From the IMG/VR virus record IMGVR_UViG_2617271086_000006: a stretch of 13,662 bases of DNA, one strand, 5' to 3'. Below are positions 1 through 7,320 of the stretch, one piece after another. Below the pieces are notes generated by a model. It saw only the letters and a program-made list of their open reading frames with translations. It was not told the DNA's origin and did not search any database. Source of the DNA: a virus (Duplodnaviria; Heunggongvirae; Uroviricota; Caudoviricetes). The position numbers and the translations under genes were made by a program. Numbering within the stretch: position 1 is the stretch's first letter; every line of letters begins with the position of its first letter.

Positions 1-319
1 TTGCCTCCCCCCCGTTGATGGGTAAAATAGCCGCAATTTTTCGTTTTCAACAAGCGCGGCGCGATGCCGCTTACTCAAGAAGAAAGAATTATGACGTTGT
101 CTCCTTATTTGCAAGAGGTGGCGAAGCGCCGCACTTTTGCCATTATTTCTCACCCCAATAATTAAGCCTAAATTAAAGCTCTTTTACTCTTTCAAAATCC
201 TTTCAGTTAATTGAGGTTGAGCAATATAACTCATTTAAATACATTTAGTTATGTGGCTTCTTTAATTGAAAATTCTTTCATGTAACTTTAAATCGATCTG
301 CTTGCTTTCATCAAAAATC

Positions 320-376
320 TGTACATATGCTTGTACATAATGTACAAAGCAGCAGAGGTGTTTTGCGATTTGTACA
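320..376. repeat. Cluster of four TGTACA hexamers upstream of int, including the perfect 15-bp palindrome TGTACATAATGTACA (332-346)
   Basis: Read directly: TGTACA at 320-325, 332-337, 341-346 and 371-376, ending 10 nt before the int start codon. Candidate protein-binding sites, function unknown. Confidence 0.35.
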
Positions 377-385
377 AGGTGAGTA

Positions 386-1609
386 ATGGCGCTGTCTGAT
401 GCGTGGTTGCGTTCAGTCGTTGGAAAGGAACGTGATAAGGTTTTGGTTAAATCCGATCGTGATGGTCTGTCTGTCAGAGTATCACCGAAAGGTCGCGTAG
501 TGTTCCAATATCGTTATCAATGGGCAGGGAAAGGTGAGCGTCTTGATATCGGAACTTACCCGGCAACTGGATTAAAAGAGGCCAGAGAAGAAGTTATCCG
601 TCTCCGTGGTGAACTCGAGTCAAACCGTAATCCACGATTGGTCAAGCAGGCTGAAAAACGAAAAGCTACTGAAGCCATGACGGTAGAGTCTGTGATCCGT
701 GCCTGGTATGAAGCATATTGTGTAAAAAATAAAAAAGGCTCTGAACAGATACTCCGCTCGTTTGAGCTGCACCTGTTCTCTAAAATCGGGAATATCCCTC
801 ACGATGCAGCTACATTGCATGATTGGTTAGAAGTCCTGGAGCCTCTTAGCACTAAGACTCCAGCAATAGCAGACCGATTGCTAATTAACGCAAAGCAGGC
901 CCATGTCTGGGCGTATAAGAGAAAGCTCATTGAAACTCGCCCGCTGTCGGATATCACGGGTAAAGATATGGATATCCGTAAAGGTCAGAAGAAACGGTTT
1001 CTGACACATGATGAAATTAAAATCCTTTATGCTGCGATCGATGGTTCTCGAATGGTTCCTAAATACCGGGCCTTCATTAAACTATTGCTGCATTTTGGCT
1101 GCCGTAGTTCAGAGCTAATTACCGCCAGGGTGGACGATTTTGATTTCATTAATAAAGTATGGACTGTACCACCAGAACGACATAAGACTGGGGAGATAAC
1201 GGGCGAACCGCTAAAACGGCCCATTATTGAACCGGTTGAAGAGCTTATAAAGTACGCTATTTCTATGAACAATGGTTCCGATATGCTTTTTACTAAGGAA
1301 GGAAGCAGGGAACCCGTTGGTCGGACATCATTGCAGTCGCTGCCTTACAATTTAATGCAGTATGCATGGCGGCGTTTGGGGTATCAATTCCCTCATTGGT
1401 CTCTGCATGATTTGAGGCGAACAGCACGAACAAACTTTTCTGATCTTACTGCGCCTCATATCGCAGAAATAATGCTCGGTCATAAACTGCCGGGGGTATG
1501 GCAAGTTTATGACAAGAGTGATTATTTAGAAGAACAGCGTAAAGCCTACCAGGCATGGTGGGAGAGAGTTGAATCGATTGTTACTTGTTCTGGTTCAGAC
1601 ACCAACTGA
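386..1609 (+). CDS. int: Tyrosine site-specific integrase (phage integrase family, P4-like)
   Basis: 407-aa ORF. Catalytic-domain signatures GCRSSEL (box I Arg), HDLRRTART (His-x-x-Arg) and a C-terminal Tyr region (VWQVYDKSDY). N-terminal region resembles the arm-binding domain. GGTGAG Shine-Dalgarno-like sequence 4-5 nt upstream of ATG 386. Confidence 0.9.
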   Translation: MALSDAWLRSVVGKERDKVLVKSDRDGLSVRVSPKGRVVFQYRYQWAGKGERLDIGTYPATGLKEAREEVIRLRGELESNRNPRLVKQAEKRKATEAMTVESVIRAWYEAYCVKNKKGSEQILRSFELHLFSKIGNIPHDAATLHDWLEVLEPLSTKTPAIADRLLINAKQAHVWAYKRKLIETRPLSDITGKDMDIRKGQKKRFLTHDEIKILYAAIDGSRMVPKYRAFIKLLLHFGCRSSELITARVDDFDFINKVWTVPPERHKTGEITGEPLKRPIIEPVEELIKYAISMNNGSDMLFTKEGSREPVGRTSLQSLPYNLMQYAWRRLGYQFPHWSLHDLRRTARTNFSDLTAPHIAEIMLGHKLPGVWQVYDKSDYLEEQRKAYQAWWERVESIVTCSGSDTN

Positions 1610-1781
1610 CAGTTTGCATATTTTGAACGCAATAAAATATGACAGTCCGCTTTGAGCGAGGAGCGGATATATGATGTTTAGAAAACGCGCGATTTGCAGT
1701 TAAGCAATCTAAGTTACTGATGTACTATACTGGAACTGCTGGCCAGTTTGTGTTGAACACCATCATTATCACAATAAGGAA

Positions 1782-3035
1782 ATGAAAGTCGAAATGAATA
1801 CTAAACTTTTGGCCTATTTAAACAATGAGTTACATGGAGTGTGGATAGATAGTGAAAATCGTAATATCCACATAATACTTAAATCAAGCCTTCCTATAAT
1901 TAAATCCGTCTGGTCAGGAGCACCTATCCACTTTTTGGTAGGTTTATCTACTAAAAATATACTAGTGATTGGGATGTTGATTGAAGATAATGTCGATAAT
2001 CCATTTTTACTAGCCTATCCACCAAGAGAGGCAGATGAAATTAAAGGGCTGGATTTGTTATTGTCAGGCGCTTATGATGGTATTCTATTATCATTTTTTG
2101 ACTCGCATACAATGCGTGTTATGGACCTGAAAATAAAAGTTTCGGAAAATTTACCGTGTGAATGTTTAAAAAAATTTTGTGCTAATTCATATTCTCTCAA
2201 TTCAGGATTTAGGGAAGGTAATGAAGCAATGGATGAATTCTGCAACAATGCTTTGACTGGTAACGAGAAAATAATTAGTCTGCCACTAAGTGTAATCGAT
2301 AAAAAATCTTACCTAGCAAGTGTTCATGAACCAAACGATACCGTATTAACATATGAATTTAGCGTCAGTGAAAACGGCTCTGAGGGATATGAGCAGGAAG
2401 CTCTTATATACCATGCTTTGCGGCAGGTCTTTTCACCGGAGGAAGTGTTTTTTTCTCCAGATATTATTGAGGGTAATAAAAAAAGAGAACTAGTTGATAT
2501 TCTTATTGTAGAAAATGACTATGTATTATCTATACAGTCTAAAGCATCATCTTTGATTGAAATGGGTTTAAAATCTCATGAAAAGCTTTGTAGCATGTAT
2601 AAGAAAAAAGCATTGCAAGGGATCGATCAGGTTAAAGGCGTTATCCCAATTCTAAATAATGATGTGGTTATTAATTATGACGGGAGGGAATGCTTAATAA
2701 AGCGCAGAAAGGGTATTTATCATTTAGTGATAATCTCAGATCTTGTTTTAGAGAAAGAAGGTGCTGAAAAGATTTATAACGAAATTAGCAACCTTAAAGA
2801 GTCAAAAGGGGCGAAAGTTTTAGTTATGAGCCTTGAAGGTCTTGTAAATTTTATAAGACTATCAAGATTAAATAAAAGAATGTTTTGGGCAATGCTGGAG
2901 ACTAAATACAAGTTCAGCATAAAAAACCGTACAATTTTAATTAGAGATATCGACTCTAGCCAAGAGAATAATCTACCATTACTTGCCACTGATCAATACC
3001 TATCACTTCTTCGAGGTACGGGAAAATTAAAATAA
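1782..3035 (+). CDS. AT-rich cargo (moron) protein of unknown function with a putative PD-(D/E)xK nuclease-like core; candidate defence or abortive-infection protein
   Basis: 417-aa ORF, visibly AT-rich compared with the roughly 50% GC flanks. Residues about 201-254 show helix EGYEQEALIYHALRQ, then strand ELVDILIV (Asp), then strand YVLSIQSK (Q-x-K), i.e. a D-x12-QxK arrangement as in Mrr/NERD-type PD-(D/E)xK folds. Start may be ATG 1782 or the in-frame ATG 1794. No confident family assignment. Confidence 0.7.
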   Translation: MKVEMNTKLLAYLNNELHGVWIDSENRNIHIILKSSLPIIKSVWSGAPIHFLVGLSTKNILVIGMLIEDNVDNPFLLAYPPREADEIKGLDLLLSGAYDGILLSFFDSHTMRVMDLKIKVSENLPCECLKKFCANSYSLNSGFREGNEAMDEFCNNALTGNEKIISLPLSVIDKKSYLASVHEPNDTVLTYEFSVSENGSEGYEQEALIYHALRQVFSPEEVFFSPDIIEGNKKRELVDILIVENDYVLSIQSKASSLIEMGLKSHEKLCSMYKKKALQGIDQVKGVIPILNNDVVINYDGRECLIKRRKGIYHLVIISDLVLEKEGAEKIYNEISNLKESKGAKVLVMSLEGLVNFIRLSRLNKRMFWAMLETKYKFSIKNRTILIRDIDSSQENNLPLLATDQYLSLLRGTGKLK

Positions 3036-3220
3036 ATTGTATCAATGATACTGTTGCCACGTATCGAGACTGGCTTATGAACGGAAGGGTTTTCCAGCAG
3101 TTCAGCGACCGGAGCTGCACATCGATGCCGGATTGTGCCTGCAATTATGTACTTGGCTAAGAGGTGCTGCTGGCTCTGGATAGAATAACCCTAACGTCCA
3201 AAGAGCGCGCATTTTCATGT

Positions 3221-3262
3221 AAAAAAATAAATAGCTTGTCTGCTCTTGATACAGAGCAGACA
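3221..3262 (-). terminator. Rho-independent terminator candidate ending the leftward early operon
   Basis: Inverted repeat TGTCTGCTC (3237-3245) / GAGCAGACA (3254-3262) with an 8-nt loop. On the minus strand the stem is followed by AGCUAUUUAUUUUUUU (plus-strand A-run 3221-3233). Confidence 0.5.
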
Positions 3263-3320
3263 GTCAGATCTGTTTGGCTTGTGCCATAGATGTGCCAGCT
3301 CACATTTGAGCTAATGTTTG

Positions 3321-3515
3321 TTACTCAATTACTCCTGCAAACCTGTATATCTTACGTGATGCCCATTTATTTGGGCAGGATTTAATATCAGGATCTGGAA
3401 AATCAGGCCGATATTTCTGACCAGTCCTCCGGTTTACACTGTTCCAGCGAAGCACCGTCGATATTGAAACGCCACAGAATTCGGCGACTTGTTTTGTTGT
3501 CATTAAGTTGTTCAT
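3321..3515 (-). CDS. AlpA/excisionase-like small HTH DNA-binding protein (putative Xis/regulator)
   Basis: Trimmed to the internal Met (MNNLMTTKQVAEFCGVSISTVLRW...), giving 64 aa. Its start codon overlaps the upstream gene's stop as ATGA (3512-3515). HTH-like segment followed by an FPDP motif, as in AlpA/HTH_17 proteins. Last gene of the leftward operon, the usual xis position. Confidence 0.55.
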   Translation of the reverse strand: MNNLMTTKQVAEFCGVSISTVLRWNSVNRRTGQKYRPDFPDPDIKSCPNKWASRKIYRFAGVIE

Positions 3516-3859
3516 TGTTGACCCTCCTGTGGTTGTGCAGTTGAAAGACTCATGCCCGCGCGTTGTTGCCAGACGACCCAGCCGAGAGCCATATCCCACG
3601 CCATGTACTCGTTATCACCGTTTTTTGCTCTCCGACGATCGACTGTTTTACCGAAACGCTTTTCCATAAATAATTCATAGGCTGCGCGTTCATCTGGCTC
3701 AACTTCCAGAGATGCCAGTGCAATCCGTGCCAGTTCTAAATCATCTTCAAGCTCAGCGCGAATCTCAGCGAATGCACTCTGTGTTAAGGCGAACTCAATG
3801 CTCTGCACTTTATTCCGTGCGCGCTCAAGCAGTGCATGGTAGTTAATTTCGGTTGTCAT
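3512..3859 (-). CDS. Hypothetical early-operon protein (115 aa)
   Basis: ORF with ATGA overlaps at both ends (3856-3859 and 3512-3515). GAGG/AGGGG Shine-Dalgarno-like sequence upstream. Acidic, helical-looking sequence with no recognised motif. Confidence 0.7.
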   Translation of the reverse strand: MTTEINYHALLERARNKVQSIEFALTQSAFAEIRAELEDDLELARIALASLEVEPDERAAYELFMEKRFGKTVDRRRAKNGDNEYMAWDMALGWVVWQQRAGMSLSTAQPQEGQQ

Positions 3860-4734
3860 ACCCCTACCTCTTCGAATTTCAATACCAATTGATCACCCCA
3901 GATTTCACATGACTCTGAACACGAGCCGGTATCGAATCGCCTGGCCTGTACCATCGCCTGATACAAATTTCTGTAGTCGCTGTTGGCAGACATTCTGGCA
4001 ATTCCGTCAAGCGTCAGGTGACCACGGTACATAACGTCTTTACCTGTTCTGCGATGACCATCCCTGACGTGTTTGCCTGTAACCAGCTCATTAAAAACTC
4101 GCATCAGACCAGGTTCGTCTTTACATGCAAGCCCCAGCTTTTGCGTTGACTTTTTGATGCAGAAAACACAGTTCCCGAGATGCTCCGGGATTTGCAAATC
4201 AAAAGGTTGTTTTCGCCACCACCGGATAACATCCGACTTATCAAAATCTGACAGTTCGGCAAGATACCGGACGCCCGATTTCGGTTTCAGCCTACGGGGT
4301 TCGTCTGCACGAATACCCAGCCATGTGATGTAATTACCTCGCCCGAAATGGTTATCGCAGTATTTCGTGAAAGGGATGAGTTTTAGCCTGTCAGTACAGA
4401 ACGCGCCGCCGATGTATGGCGTGCCGTACTTTTTAACCATGTCCATAAACGGTTTAAGTACCGGCATTCGCGTCTGAATATCCTTTGGCTCCCATTCTGT
4501 ATAACCATTTGGCTGCCCAAGCTCAGGATTGATATCGACCTGCAACACAGTTAGTGGTATGCCCCAGAACTTCACAACCTCCCGAATAAAGCGGTATGTC
4601 AGCGGATGTTCGCAACCGGTATCCATAAAGATGTAGCAGACGTTATTGCCAGCCTTTCTTTGTTCTTCCATCAGGTGAACAAGATATGCAGATGTTCTCC
4701 CGCCGGAAAAACTAACTACATGAGTTATGCACAT
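3856..4734 (-). CDS. Phosphoadenosine phosphosulfate (PAPS) reductase family protein (PP-loop ATP pyrophosphatase superfamily)
   Basis: 292-aa ORF. N-terminal PP-loop motif VVSFSGGRTS (SGGxxS). GGAG Shine-Dalgarno-like sequence 9 nt upstream. Start overlaps the upstream gene's stop by 10 nt. Confidence 0.85.
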   Translation of the reverse strand: MCITHVVSFSGGRTSAYLVHLMEEQRKAGNNVCYIFMDTGCEHPLTYRFIREVVKFWGIPLTVLQVDINPELGQPNGYTEWEPKDIQTRMPVLKPFMDMVKKYGTPYIGGAFCTDRLKLIPFTKYCDNHFGRGNYITWLGIRADEPRRLKPKSGVRYLAELSDFDKSDVIRWWRKQPFDLQIPEHLGNCVFCIKKSTQKLGLACKDEPGLMRVFNELVTGKHVRDGHRRTGKDVMYRGHLTLDGIARMSANSDYRNLYQAMVQARRFDTGSCSESCEIWGDQLVLKFEEVGV

Positions 4735-5261
4735 TTGCGTAACTCCGATAACTCGTTAAAACGTTCCATAAACATCCCGTAGGCATGTCCTGGTGCCAGT
4801 GGAATCACTTTGAACATCTCTGTTGCCGGGATACCTTCCAGTACAGGCCAGAAAGAGCCATCATCAAGCCCGAGATCGCGGCGTTCGGTTGCCAGCATAA
4901 TGAGATCGGCATATTTCACTGGCGTGCTCATAACAGGAGGTAACCCGTATTTCTCACGGATTACGGCGTCTATTTTTTCTTCCATCTGTTTATAGTCAGG
5001 AAGAAGGCGTTTCAGTGGCGCGGGGATGTCCTGACAATACGCTTCTGTTGCATCATGCATTAACGCTTCAAAAGCAAACTCCTCCGGAACCAGTTTGCTG
5101 CAAAGCACCGCATGTTGGGCGACGCTGTAGAAGTGTGAAAGATGACCGGCAAAGCGACAGATATTTGAAAGGGAAACTGCGATATCGTTAATCACGATGT
5201 CGTCTTTATTTATCCTGTCATAATAAAAATGCTTCCCGGAAAAAGTTTTAATAAATGACAT
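4725..5261 (-). CDS. yfdR: HD-domain phosphohydrolase, YfdR-like
   Basis: Trimmed to the internal Met (MSFIKTFSGKHFYYD...), giving 178 aa, which matches the length I recall for E. coli CPS-53 YfdR. HD signature (H...ALMHDATEAY). GTGGAG Shine-Dalgarno-like sequence 7 nt upstream of ATG 5261. Confidence 0.85.
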   Translation of the reverse strand: MSFIKTFSGKHFYYDRINKDDIVINDIAVSLSNICRFAGHLSHFYSVAQHAVLCSKLVPEEFAFEALMHDATEAYCQDIPAPLKRLLPDYKQMEEKIDAVIREKYGLPPVMSTPVKYADLIMLATERRDLGLDDGSFWPVLEGIPATEMFKVIPLAPGHAYGMFMERFNELSELRKCA

Positions 5262-5355
5262 TTTGTTCTCCACTTTATATGCGCTGCACCGCGCTGAATT
5301 TTGGTTAAAGAAAACCCTCGCCATCAGGCGATTATTGAGTTAATTACGTTTCCAT

Positions 5356-5377
5356 AAATGCCCCCGCAGGGGCATTT
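5356..5377. other. GC-rich hairpin between the YfdQ-like and YfdR-like genes
   Basis: AAATGCCCC (5356-5364) / GGGGCATTT (5369-5377), 9-bp stem with a CGCA loop. No clean U-tract on either strand, so not called a terminator. Confidence 0.4.
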
Positions 5378-5389
5378 GCAGTAATGAAA

Positions 5390-6214
5390 TCAGGCGGTGA
5401 AAGTACCAATAAAGGTTTCTACTTTGCTGTCTTTGAATTTTTCAACAAGCAGATCACGAAATTCGTTAGCCATTTCTTCCTGCACTGCTTCCAGCTGAAT
5501 AATGCGCAGAACCAGTACAGGGCGATCACCAGTGATAATGCTGAGGCGTAATTTAAACGGACGTTCTTTCAGGCCTTCAAACGGAACGCATTTAAACTCA
5601 AATGCTACTGGCATAATGTCTTTGGTTTTCGCTTCGACAGACTCCATCAGAGAGCGTTTGCCGCTGAAGTCATTGTCTTCAAAATCAGCGGTCTGGTTTG
5701 CTTCAATCGTGATTTTACGGACCGCCGCAGCCGCTTTTGTTGCCTGAATGGCGTCACCATTAGCATCAAAGCCCACAAGGTAGTCGGCCCAGTCTTCAAT
5801 CCATTCTGCCAGTGACTTCTGGGAGTTACGCTCGCCGTTAACAGACAACAGGGCAGAGAACGGTGCTGTCTTTTTCAGTTTGAGAGTGGCGGTGTTATCT
5901 GCGTGACCTGGTTCATCAATAGTACCCAGGTTAAGCACACTGACGGCTCGCATATTATCAGCATCGATAAAGCAGCGGGTGCCTTCATCTGCAAGATCTT
6001 TAGAATAACGGGTAAAGTCATCGATGCTGGCAGTGGAAAGCGCACCACGGAAACGGAAGCGATTTAAATTAAATTTTTCCAGATCATGAATGCGGAAATT
6101 CTCAGGCAATGCCACAGCATCGGCACCAATCTTACTGATAATTTCATTAACACCCTGAGCAGAAATAAGGGCATGGATTTGATTAATTGCGGTTGCGTCT
6201 AAGTTCTGAGACAT
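5390..6214 (-). CDS. yfdQ: YfdQ-like protein (DUF2303 family)
   Basis: 274-aa ORF, the same length I recall for CPS-53 YfdQ, in the conserved position between YfdP-like and YfdR-like genes. GAGGA Shine-Dalgarno-like sequence about 7 nt upstream of ATG 6214. Confidence 0.85.
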
Positions 6215-6279
6215 AATAAGTCCTCACTATATAAAGATATTCAGTGATGAGATAAATAATCAGTTTATTAAAAACGATA

Positions 6280-6642
6280 TTAACGACCTGCTGCGCGGAG
6301 TTTTCCGTCAGGTTCACCGGCAAGAGTCAGTAATTGTCCTTGGTCTTCCTGCAGAATAGTCAGGCGACCACCGCGATTGACATACATCGGCGTTTCGGTG
6401 GTGTCTTCTTCGGAAATTTTCCCGCGGTTAGTCGGGCGAACATATGAGAGTTTGTGTTTGATTTTTACACGGTTCTCATCAAACGGTTCGATTTCCAGGT
6501 TGAGCGAGACCTTACCTTTGGTTTTCGTGTTCATCACACCGGAAGCGACTTCACTGAGAACAGCGCCGATTTTGGTTTCAAATACGCCGCCGTCCAGCTC
6601 CCCGATAAATGCCTGCACATCAGTACTGCGTTCGCTAGCCAT
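6280..6642 (-). CDS. YfdP-like small protein (120 aa), first gene of the leftward operon
   Basis: The track ORF (182 aa, TTG-initiated) is trimmed to the internal ATG at 6642 (MASERSTDVQ...), which is preceded by GAGGAG at 8 nt. Resulting length 120 aa. Confidence 0.8.
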   Translation of the reverse strand: MASERSTDVQAFIGELDGGVFETKIGAVLSEVASGVMNTKTKGKVSLNLEIEPFDENRVKIKHKLSYVRPTNRGKISEEDTTETPMYVNRGGRLTILQEDQGQLLTLAGEPDGKLRAAGR

Positions 6643-6779
6643 TTTGCTGCTCCTCATCATATCGACCCCGCAAGGTCGGTTGGTTTCTCCACAAAACAGA
6701 GAAGAACACCAGCGGTGGCAGCCGCCCGGATGGATTGGGTTATGAGCCCGTCGTCCGGTGATGCCCTTCTCTGTTTTGT

Positions 6780-6825
6780 AAAAAGAGCGGTACCAGCCGG
6801 AAGCAAGTGTACAAACTGGTACCGC
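6780..6825 (-). terminator. Stem-loop plus U-tract in the PL leader (tL-like terminator candidate)
   Basis: Perfect 10-bp inverted repeat GCGGTACCAG (6787-6796) / CTGGTACCGC (6816-6825) with a 19-nt loop containing TGTACA. On the minus strand it is followed by UCUUUUUACAAAAC, which also resembles a boxA motif (CGCTCTTTTTA). Confidence 0.4.
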
Positions 6826-7320
6826 CAAAGCAGTGGCTGTTGTGGTGACCGGTGCTGATCTCCGGCTTGCGGTTATTTCAGACTCTCACGGGCGTTTAAT
6901 TGCCCCGCCGAACAGCTCTTTTCCGCAATAGCTGCAATGTCTTTCGCGCATCAGCCTGCGCATTCACCACAACGCTGAGAGCATTGCCGGTGTCCGAATC
7001 GAACGGACCTTTTCCCTGCCCAACCCTCCCATCTGAATGGGACTGTCTGGAATTGAACCAGCACTTATGCCTTGCTCGTCAATGCTCTCATCGTTGCGTC
7101 CTGGTCTCTTCCCAAGCGTCAAACCGAATCGCCACGCTGGTTAGGCGTCTTATCAGCATCCTCATTGACTTGCACATTCCGGCTACCTGGTTTGTTTGCC
7201 CGAGCAAGGAGTGGATTATCCCCTTTAACGTCCCCAGACCGCTAACGACGCATGTGCCATACGCCGTGTTACAACCAAATTTTGTTTGAATCTTGCCTGC
7301 CTCATGTTTCTTTTGGATAC

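Follow-up and report, generated by a model that had tools for sequence, protein, structure and literature searches.

Morons are extra genes that are missing from related phages, differ from their surroundings in G+C content (GC) and should be active while the prophage is repressed, to the benefit of the host (Cumby, Davidson and Maxwell 2012, PMC3594210). Hotspots in which differing defence systems occupy a fixed position are found in P2-like phages and P4-like satellites (Rousset et al. 2022, PMC9122126), and in the KplE1/HK620 layout the integrase gene has its own promoter, which overlaps the left attachment site attL (PMC2951348). The DNA analysed here (the window) is a stretch of 13,662 nucleotides (nt) from a Caudoviricetes virus (IMG/VR record IMGVR_UViG_2617271086_000006) and represents the left end of a lambdoid prophage that has integrated in prfC. 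Between its integrase (int) and excisionase (xis) genes lies a segment, positions 1646-3262, that is probably a horizontally acquired single-gene moron occupying an int-xis slot. Its one gene, referred to below as the cargo gene, encodes a candidate stand-alone anti-phage nuclease. The features of this region are as follows.

386..1609, plus strand: P4-type tyrosine integrase gene (int), with the Pfam domains Arm-DNA-bind_3, Phage_int_M and Phage_integrase, reading from attL into the prophage
1645..1668, plus strand: left boundary hairpin, GUCCGCUUU-GAGCGA-GGAGCGGAU, from folding, with no U-tract
1646..3262, plus strand: mobile cassette, delimited by comparison (leader, cargo gene, 200-nt 3' region, A-run and left arm of the right hairpin)
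1669..1793, plus strand: conserved leader, with weak promoter candidates in a position weight matrix (PWM) scan; also carried in loci L034, L037 and L039
1794..3035, plus strand: cargo coding sequence, 413 residues (RefSeq WP_016240718.1; phrog_30399)
1794..2363, plus strand: N-terminal domain, residues ~1-190, mixed alpha/beta with an unassigned fold (mean predicted local distance difference test, pLDDT, of the model 92.3)
2382..2927, plus strand: predicted C-terminal PD-(D/E)xK nuclease domain, residues ~197-378, FokI/BspD6I-like and NERD-like
2397-2399, 2496-2498, 2535-2537 and 2541-2543: key codons E202, D235, Q248 and K250, respectively
3036..3236, plus strand: GC-normal 3' region travelling with the gene, present in the 75 cargo-bearing genomes only, plus a weak plasmid match
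3221..3262, minus strand: right boundary hairpin with a U-rich tail, from the terminator scan and folding
3263..3320, minus strand: non-coding backbone flank between xis and the hairpin, common to sibling prophages, with a second small hairpin at 3297-3312
3515..3321, minus strand: excisionase gene (xis), 64 residues, last gene of the leftward operon (phrog_1553, E 7.7e-35; HTH_17/Xis hints)

The open reading frame (ORF) of the cargo gene has 33.8% GC (28.5% at third codon positions), compared with 45.4% for int, 42.1% for xis and 49.5% for the rest of the window; third-position GC of the neighbouring genes is 40-50%. Windows of 1254 nt to the right of position 3300 have a minimum of 43.1% GC (mean 49.3%, standard deviation 3.1). 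A reading of this DNA made from the letters alone (the sequence-only reading) had described 1610-3320 as an AT-rich island bounded by hairpins. Windowed and third-position GC confirm a profile that is not uniform, and both the AT-rich block and the two hairpins are present; the block is narrower than proposed, with change-points at 1667 and 3050 (two-boundary likelihood scan, log-likelihood gain ~31). Positions 3036-3220 have 48.6% GC, yet belong to the insert by its comparative boundaries.

These boundaries, ~1646 to 3262, were obtained by the alignment with related prophages that had been suggested for this locus, using sibling prophages of the prfC family together with lambda-like viral contigs, Kluyvera and Serratia fonticola carrying the same cassette. 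Homology with sibling prophages that hold other cargo stops at ~1657, within the left hairpin, and homology with unrelated phages that hold the same cassette begins at ~1645-1650. In foreign contexts the moving unit consists of the left hairpin, a 145-nt leader, the gene, the 200-nt 3' region, the A-run and the left arm of the right hairpin. The 3' region is conserved downstream of the gene in S. fonticola, Serratia marcescens and viral contigs, contains a conserved 23-nt core at 3120-3142 (CATCGATGCCGGATTGTGCCTGC), and is probably non-coding. This core, exactly conserved as CATCGATGYCRGAYWGTGCCWGC, lies ~90 nt past the cargo stop. A small Cys-rich ORF at 3078-3161 was considered since two indels that set it apart from S. 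fonticola have lengths divisible by three; it was rejected as coding, with ~9 of 10 substitutions non-synonymous and no conservation in distant loci. Rfam gave no relevant match at E<=1 in positions 1-4200 of the window, nor at E<=0.1 at two canonical hairpin loci.

The int-xis slot was surveyed in 5,426 complete E. coli genomes, counting int at 90% DNA identity or more. The integrase gene is present in ~700 genomes (~13%) and the cargo gene in 75. In the other int-bearing genomes, homology to the window breaks off between a few and ~50 nt beyond the int stop and is picked up again at ~3237-3275. Since the segment is missing from siblings that retain both flanks, and has a distinct composition, it is best regarded as foreign cargo. 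No empty slot was found in the 5,426 genomes with a synthetic junction of the int and xis ends, and the two ends are never within ~700 bp of each other. Seven of nine siblings have a slot GC of 34-37%, compared with 46-48% in the backbone. The siblings hold the following cargos.

KOL-1: AIPR abortive-infection protein
GB089: anti-phage dCTP deaminase
EC27: Dsr1
631: dGTPase-family protein
2014C-4423: two ORFs jointly matching Borvo BovA
MB56: a double-stranded-RNA-binding protein and an HNH protein
2015C-3121: a gene broken by IS1
UTI89, MS20673 and TUM1886: proteins with no named function

On this gene content, the int-xis slot of the prfC prophage family is a defence hotspot in the P2/P4 sense. 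As in the P2 and P4 hotspots, the site is fixed between conserved genes, a different system is found in each element and many of these systems are known to be anti-phage; moreover, distant homologues of the cargo sit in both the P2 and the P4 hotspots. The difference lies in the setting: here the element is lambdoid, sits at prfC and encodes a P4-type integrase, and its slot is between the convergent int and xis genes. The prfC hotspot was not found described in the searchable literature, and neither the prfC slot nor the 413-residue protein was found in the text or supplements of PMC9122126. Among the siblings, the 'hypothetical' protein and 'CHAT domain protein' annotated in 2014C-4423 (L028, 5852-7983) correspond to the two halves of BovA (PADLOC E 8.8e-49 and 1.4e-174), which leaves two readings, a BovA that is split or frameshifted and a two-gene variant. 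The cargos with no PADLOC match or not scanned, a membrane-like protein of 331 residues in UTI89 and proteins of 342 residues in MS20673 and 183 residues in TUM1886, are further defence candidates.

Homologues of the cargo gene are always solitary genes and are located in defence hotspots of phages and satellites and in other contexts, as listed below.

P2-like Serratia prophage: between gpV and gpS, adjoining a DUF6602/PD-DExK protein
P4-like satellite: between sid/delta and int, adjoining a validated Hydrolase and Hydrolase-TM pair
Morganella prophage, int end: adjoining PD-T7-1 (E 1.6e-156)
Yersinia plasmid-like contig: among Mrr_cat, PLDc_2 and HEPN genes
DNA flanked by insertion sequences (IS): adjoining a Fic/Phd pair
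S. marcescens: in a small chromosomal islet
Lambda-like phages: between the tail fibre genes and int, at 91-93% identity

The gene family thus occurs in the prfC slot, in the P2/P4 hotspots, beside PD-T7-1 and beside Hydrolase-TM, and by this association the cargo protein is a candidate stand-alone anti-phage effector. A two-gene system was considered, as several homologues are followed by a protein of ~435 residues, and was rejected because those neighbours are mutually unrelated. The neighbours of the homologues are unrelated to each other in general, which suggests that the gene acts alone. A profile search of species-representative genome contigs with the close subfamily returned a single locus, in Kluyvera sichuanensis (L039, 7300-8500). 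There, an IS3-family element cuts the cassette ~35 nt past the stop, and the ORF encodes 384 residues; this copy may be damaged, as it is shorter.

The right boundary hairpin has a perfect 10-bp stem (3262..3237, five G-C pairs), a 6-nt loop and the tail AGCUAUUUAUUUUUUU, which extends to 3221. Its folding energy (dG -17.6, z = -3.4) was equalled by 1 of 200 shuffled sequences. It lies 58 nt beyond the xis stop, between xis and the 3' end of the cargo gene, and consists of a G+C stem-loop followed by a U-run after the end of a gene, as in intrinsic terminators. The minus-strand terminator that the sequence-only reading had placed at 3221-3262 is therefore present as a terminator-like site, at exactly these coordinates. 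The terminator scan of 1500-3700 found three sites, where 1.4 +/- 1.3 are expected; the count is unremarkable, and it is the position and the stem quality that are striking. In the plus-strand direction no U-run comes after this stem, and the sole strong site faces the minus strand. The counterpart positions in siblings mostly fold weakly (-7.2 kcal/mol in KOL-1, -3.1 kcal/mol in UTI89), and the cassettes of KOL-1 and GB089 carry their own terminators instead. The element at 3221-3262 is a strong terminator-like site for leftward transcription, and probably a lineage-specific, well-paired copy whose U-rich tail is supplied by the cassette. The position of the hairpin and its tail supports a role in shielding the cargo gene from antisense transcription from the leftward operon.

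The left hairpin, earlier assigned to 1648-1669, is present ~2 nt away: TCCGCT (1646-1651) pairs with AGCGGA (1662-1667) in six perfect pairs, or 9 bp counting G-U. It is moderately stable (dG -14.8 in a 51-nt context, against -7.2 +/- 2.4 for shuffles), was not called by the terminator scan and has no U-tract; in sibling prophages, the hairpin after int is not consistently more stable than shuffles. The cargo gene is co-directional with int and starts 184 nt downstream of it, with no terminator-like signal between the two genes on the int side. The insulation proposed for the cargo gene therefore holds on the right, where the terminator-like hairpin follows xis, and does not hold on the left, where read-through from the int promoter is possible past a hairpin that has no U-tract.

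This one-sidedness bears on how the gene would be transcribed. The best sigma-70-like matches of the left end are at 211-331, and the int promoter is expected in the attL region. In the PWM scan, the best sites upstream of the cargo gene scored 5.6-7.4 bits, against 9.75 bits upstream of int; the candidates in the leader are TTAAGC-17-TACTAT at 1700-1728 and TGGCCA-18-CATTAT at 1740-1769. The cargo gene could thus be the distal gene of an int-cargo transcript from the int promoter at attL, with the hairpin after int acting as a processing or stability element. We regard this as a possible but distinctly less probable account. The shared strand, the 184-nt gap, the uncalled hairpin at 1645-1668 and the finding of only weak promoter candidates in 1600-1793, with better ones upstream of int, are all consistent with it, as is the low-level transcription of KplE1 int in lysogens (PMC2951348). 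Against it stand the moderate stability of the hairpin and the contexts in which the cassette has no co-directional upstream gene and must be able to start its own transcript. In a lambda-like viral contig (L034), the 145-nt leader moves with the gene to a site where the upstream ORFs are divergent, and two other homologues (L007 and L014) likewise face away from their upstream neighbours. A leader and gene lying downstream of divergent genes point indirectly to an own promoter, and a promoter within the conserved leader is likely. In L034, a near-consensus LexA (SOS) box, TACTGTATAAATAAACAGTA, is found at 5630-5651, before the divergent gene upstream of the cassette.

Compared with the morons of HK97 and HK022, the cargo gene is likewise missing at the same map position in relatives, differs in GC and is bounded by transcription signals. 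It differs from them in that a convincing promoter of its own is not visible, in that its one clear terminator is on the opposite strand, guarding against antisense transcription rather than ending the cargo transcript, and in that the bounding hairpins belong to a conserved module of the slot.

The last point emerged from a comparison of the hairpins with other phages. The left (1630-1685) and right (3220-3280) cassette junctions resemble each other, with a local alignment score of 35 against 21.9 +/- 4.0 for shuffles (~0.75% as high). In siblings and in foreign contexts, the crossovers fall inside both hairpins, as if these were exchange points. The right hairpin is a diverged copy of a widespread palindrome, GTCCGCTCT-TGGCAC-AGAGCGGAC, of which the loci compared contain 22 copies, against 0-1 in shuffles; the pattern YGCTYTTGGCACWSAGCRG is found in at least 120 stretches of IMG/VR. 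As a non-circular anchor, the backbone flank alone (YTGTGCCATAGATRTG, window 3281-3296) was searched in IMG/VR and was found in at least 120 stretches representing at least 72 distinct contexts. Among the matches listed, about 50 of the 72 contexts have GTC(C/T)GCT(C/T)(C/T)-TGGCAC-AGAGCGGAC directly upstream of the flank, and 5' of the left arm the contexts share no related sequence. Among the same listed matches, the kilobase on the variable side has a mean GC of 37.7%, against 44.7% on the conserved side, and is lower by at least 0.05 at 82 of 109 sites, with the reverse at 4 of 109; the flank and hairpin are read into from a tail fibre assembly gene at 79 of 109 sites (Caudo_TAP, E 1.4e-33) and from a window-type Xis gene at 19 of 109.

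The module as a whole is composed of the palindrome followed by the flank CTGTCAGATTAGG...TGTGCCATAGAT; it is typically located 26-30 nt past the stop of the tail fibre assembly or xis gene, and the DNA on its far side is AT-rich and variable. A second recurrent context has, 20 nt after a copy of the palindrome, a hairpin of the left type (GTCTGCTTCGAGCGA...GCGGAC), in whose loop the variable DNA starts. Across 42 distinct copies, covariation is no more than suggestive: paired cells make up 80.4%, compared with 78.8 +/- 0.6 in shuffles, and four of the nine pairs show double-sided changes, nine in all, one of them being the C-G to U-A change of the window itself. The hairpin motif string was not found in the searchable literature. 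The sequence-only reading had the island bounded by hairpins; by the IMG/VR comparison these are not private to the cassette, but copies of a boundary module that is conserved in the phage backbone. The module is probably an operon-end and boundary element of lambdoid phages that doubles as a homology handle for cassette swaps.

The cargo ORF opens at an ATG at 1782, and the homologues and the RefSeq protein start at 1794; residues are numbered from the latter Met. The protein has no match in Pfam or NCBIfam, PDB sequence and profile searches were empty, and its only PHROGs match, phrog_30399, is of unknown function. A word-indexed search returned 13 clusters, all from Enterobacterales, and a profile search of 1.84 billion representatives returned 225 proteins at E<=1e-3 (~225 clusters at 50% identity), nearly all of ~400 residues and aligned end-to-end. 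The structure was modelled on 78 diverse relatives (model m89e01e3da4aa, pLDDT 92.3); a first model, built on 14 close sequences, was set aside (pLDDT 66.5). Conservation was counted on the 78 family members. E202, P222, E232, D235, K250 and Q279 are invariant, and position 248 is Glu in 67 members and Gln in nine, the cargo protein among them. K30, in the N-terminal half, is likewise invariant, and D65, K37 and W17 are nearly so. The N-terminal domain has no Pfam match in any of the 78 members and no PDB sequence match.

The C-terminal half of the model has the alpha-beta-beta-beta-alpha-beta core of the PD-(D/E)xK nucleases and their E...D...(D/E)xK signature in its Q variant, and is predicted to be a FokI-like, NERD-like PD-(D/E)xK nuclease domain with an E..D..QxK site. 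The cleavage domains of FokI and BspD6I are its best structural matches, at an identity of just 11-12%; in contrast to these enzymes, the cargo protein has no recognisable Type IIS DNA-recognition domain or companion methyltransferase, and dimerisation is assumed. The protein has no match to Pfam NERD (PF08378) at E<=0.1, and 21 of the 78 distant relatives match weakly (best E 8.8e-6); as it lies below the threshold, it is termed NERD-like rather than filed as a member. The nearest analogue in kind is ZwsA, a stand-alone NERD defence effector (bioRxiv 10.64898/2026.04.06.716636), which is far larger, contains VHS, DUF647 and S4 domains and cuts RNA. Can2/Card1, Cap4 and NucC are also analogous in kind, as effectors that combine a sensor with a PD-(D/E)xK nuclease. 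Can2, Cap4 and NucC differ in being activated by cyclic nucleotides made by a partner, whereas the cargo has no partner gene, and no test identified its N-terminal domain as CARF or SAVED.

The glutamine at position 248 also invites comparison with modification-dependent enzymes. In MspJI, D334A and Q355A abolish activity, so that the Q variant is catalytically competent (PMC2938202). The cargo protein might accordingly be read as a Type IV modification-dependent endonuclease of the MspJI/AspBHI kind, with an N-terminal domain that reads a modified base and a C-terminal D..QxK domain that cuts nearby. We consider this unlikely, as most of the wider family has ExK and not QxK, the best structural matches are FokI and BspD6I and not MspJI-type enzymes, the match to AspBHI is of single-domain size (126 residues aligned) and no SRA-like match stands out for the N-terminal domain.

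In the mechanism that we favour, the cargo protein would be a stand-alone anti-phage effector made in the lysogen. Its N-terminal domain may recognise a cue of infection or foreign, possibly modified, DNA, and this recognition would license the nuclease domain, probably after FokI-type dimerisation, to cut DNA, thereby destroying the invader or aborting the infection. The gene would probably be driven by the weak promoter in the conserved 145-nt leader, perhaps with some read-through from the int promoter, and leftward transcription through xis would meet the 10-bp hairpin and U-rich tail before running antisense into it. The bounding hairpins may serve as operon-end structures and as homology handles for cassette swaps between phages. 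The sequence-only reading had likewise suggested a lysogenic-conversion or defence moron, expressed independently. A defence moron is indeed the best reading, given the foreign composition and the named anti-phage genes with which siblings fill the slot; what has to be given up is insulation on both sides and hairpins private to the cassette.

Several observations weigh against this mechanism. Upstream of the cargo gene, no sigma-70 match of at least 9/12 was found, either in the window or in L034. At the right hairpin, the U-run begins 4 nt past the stem, and the homologous hairpins in most other phages have no U-tract, so that the role conserved in this element may be other than termination; the barrier would also fail if the leftward operon were antiterminated on induction. 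In the protein, Gln248 replaces the second acidic residue of most relatives, and the activity could be altered. The sensing step is conjectural, as it is assigned to a domain with no assigned fold. The cargo protein has no match in PADLOC-DB v2 at E<=1 and its 78 relatives give only three chance-level matches, and neither its accession nor its peptide was found in the searchable literature.

Nucleases that serve phages in lytic growth, by degrading host DNA, in recombination or in counter-defence, are common, and the slot adjoins the recombination module. Such a lytic role for the cargo is nevertheless improbable: 90% of sibling prophages lack the gene and have unrelated cargo in its place; homologues also occur in IS-flanked DNA, in a chromosomal islet that has no phage genes around it and on a contig resembling a plasmid; and the gene faces against the early operon, with the terminator-like site between them. 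Least probable of all, and only barely credible, is a selfish, free-standing homing-type endonuclease that cuts cassette-free slot alleles, which would suit a solitary AT-rich nuclease gene between conserved flanks and a cassette with the same sharp ends in unrelated phage backbones, but many unrelated cargos, including non-nucleases, have the same boundaries, which thus belong to the slot and not to the gene, no empty target allele exists in the 5,426 genomes, and the P2/P4 hotspots that hold distant homologues differ in sequence.

The remainder of the window provides the context of the cassette. E. coli IAI39, APEC O78 and ~70 other complete genomes have a chromosomal region that matches the window exactly or almost exactly, and the same element is found in IMG/VR as viral contigs of 33-44 kb that start at window position 1. 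Its other features are as follows.

91..159, plus strand: prfC 5' fragment at the left prophage junction (attL region), a RefSeq partial coding sequence in IAI39, UTI89 and all sibling loci
3512..6828, minus strand: leftward early genes, comprising orf115 (115 residues), a PAPS-reductase-like gene, a yfdR-like gene, yfdQ (DUF2303) and an ORF of 182 residues
7388..8062, minus strand: LexA/CI-type repressor (S24 peptidase), annotated as ymfK in sibling prophages

The prfC fragment sits directly downstream of yjjG and retains the first 23 codons of prfC; as the gene is truncated at this junction, the intact gene must be rebuilt at the other end of the prophage, outside the window. The phrog_1553 match of xis covers residues 29-92 of a long ORF, the counterpart in TUM1886 is annotated as a 195-nt 'DNA-binding protein', and the xis ATG overlaps the stop of the upstream ORF (ATGA). 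A yfdP-like gene is also listed among the leftward genes with yfdR and yfdQ. Past the repressor, the rightward genes are cro/cII-like regulators followed by replication genes. An N-type antiterminator was sought in the leftward operon and none was recognised, which proves nothing on its own. The gene beside xis and orf115 (window 3856-4734) is PAPS-reductase-like in the window, GB089 and KMi025, and elsewhere DUF551, HNH or ead/Ea22-like; this variation among siblings marks a second mosaic zone in the leftward operon. The yfdR gene is frameshifted in IAI39 and intact in the window.

The arrangement resembles the KplE1 (CPS-53)/HK620 module, in which int also abuts attL, reads into the prophage and is uncoupled from the excisionase gene (Panis et al. 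2010, PMC2951348); yfdP, yfdQ and yfdR are leftward genes common to the window and CPS-53. It differs from KplE1 in the attachment site, which is prfC and not argW, and in that int and xis converge on a cargo slot.

A moron at this position is by itself an ordinary finding; its follow-up yields a hotspot, a nuclease family and a boundary module. The slot of the prfC family is always occupied, and several of its cargos, those of UTI89, MS20673, TUM1886 and the one described here, have no known function. The two-domain nuclease family, found in P2/P4 hotspots and beside PD-T7-1 and Hydrolase-TM, is a well-supported candidate for a new single-gene defence. More tentatively, and with less than even confidence, we suggest that the cargo founds a new single-protein anti-phage family, in which a new sensor fold is joined to a FokI/NERD-like nuclease, and that the hairpin-flank module is a portable boundary element marking the exchange of accessory and defence cassettes. 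If so, the module would be a sequence anchor for mining lambdoid prophages for defence genes, as psu and int are for P4. The boundary-hairpin module is the least expected by-product of this analysis: with at least 120 viral contig stretches, the hairpin and its flank provide an anchor for accessory slots and a hypothesis for how cassettes move between lambdoid phages, in which the exchange sites would follow either xis or the tail fibre assembly gene, depending on the phage.

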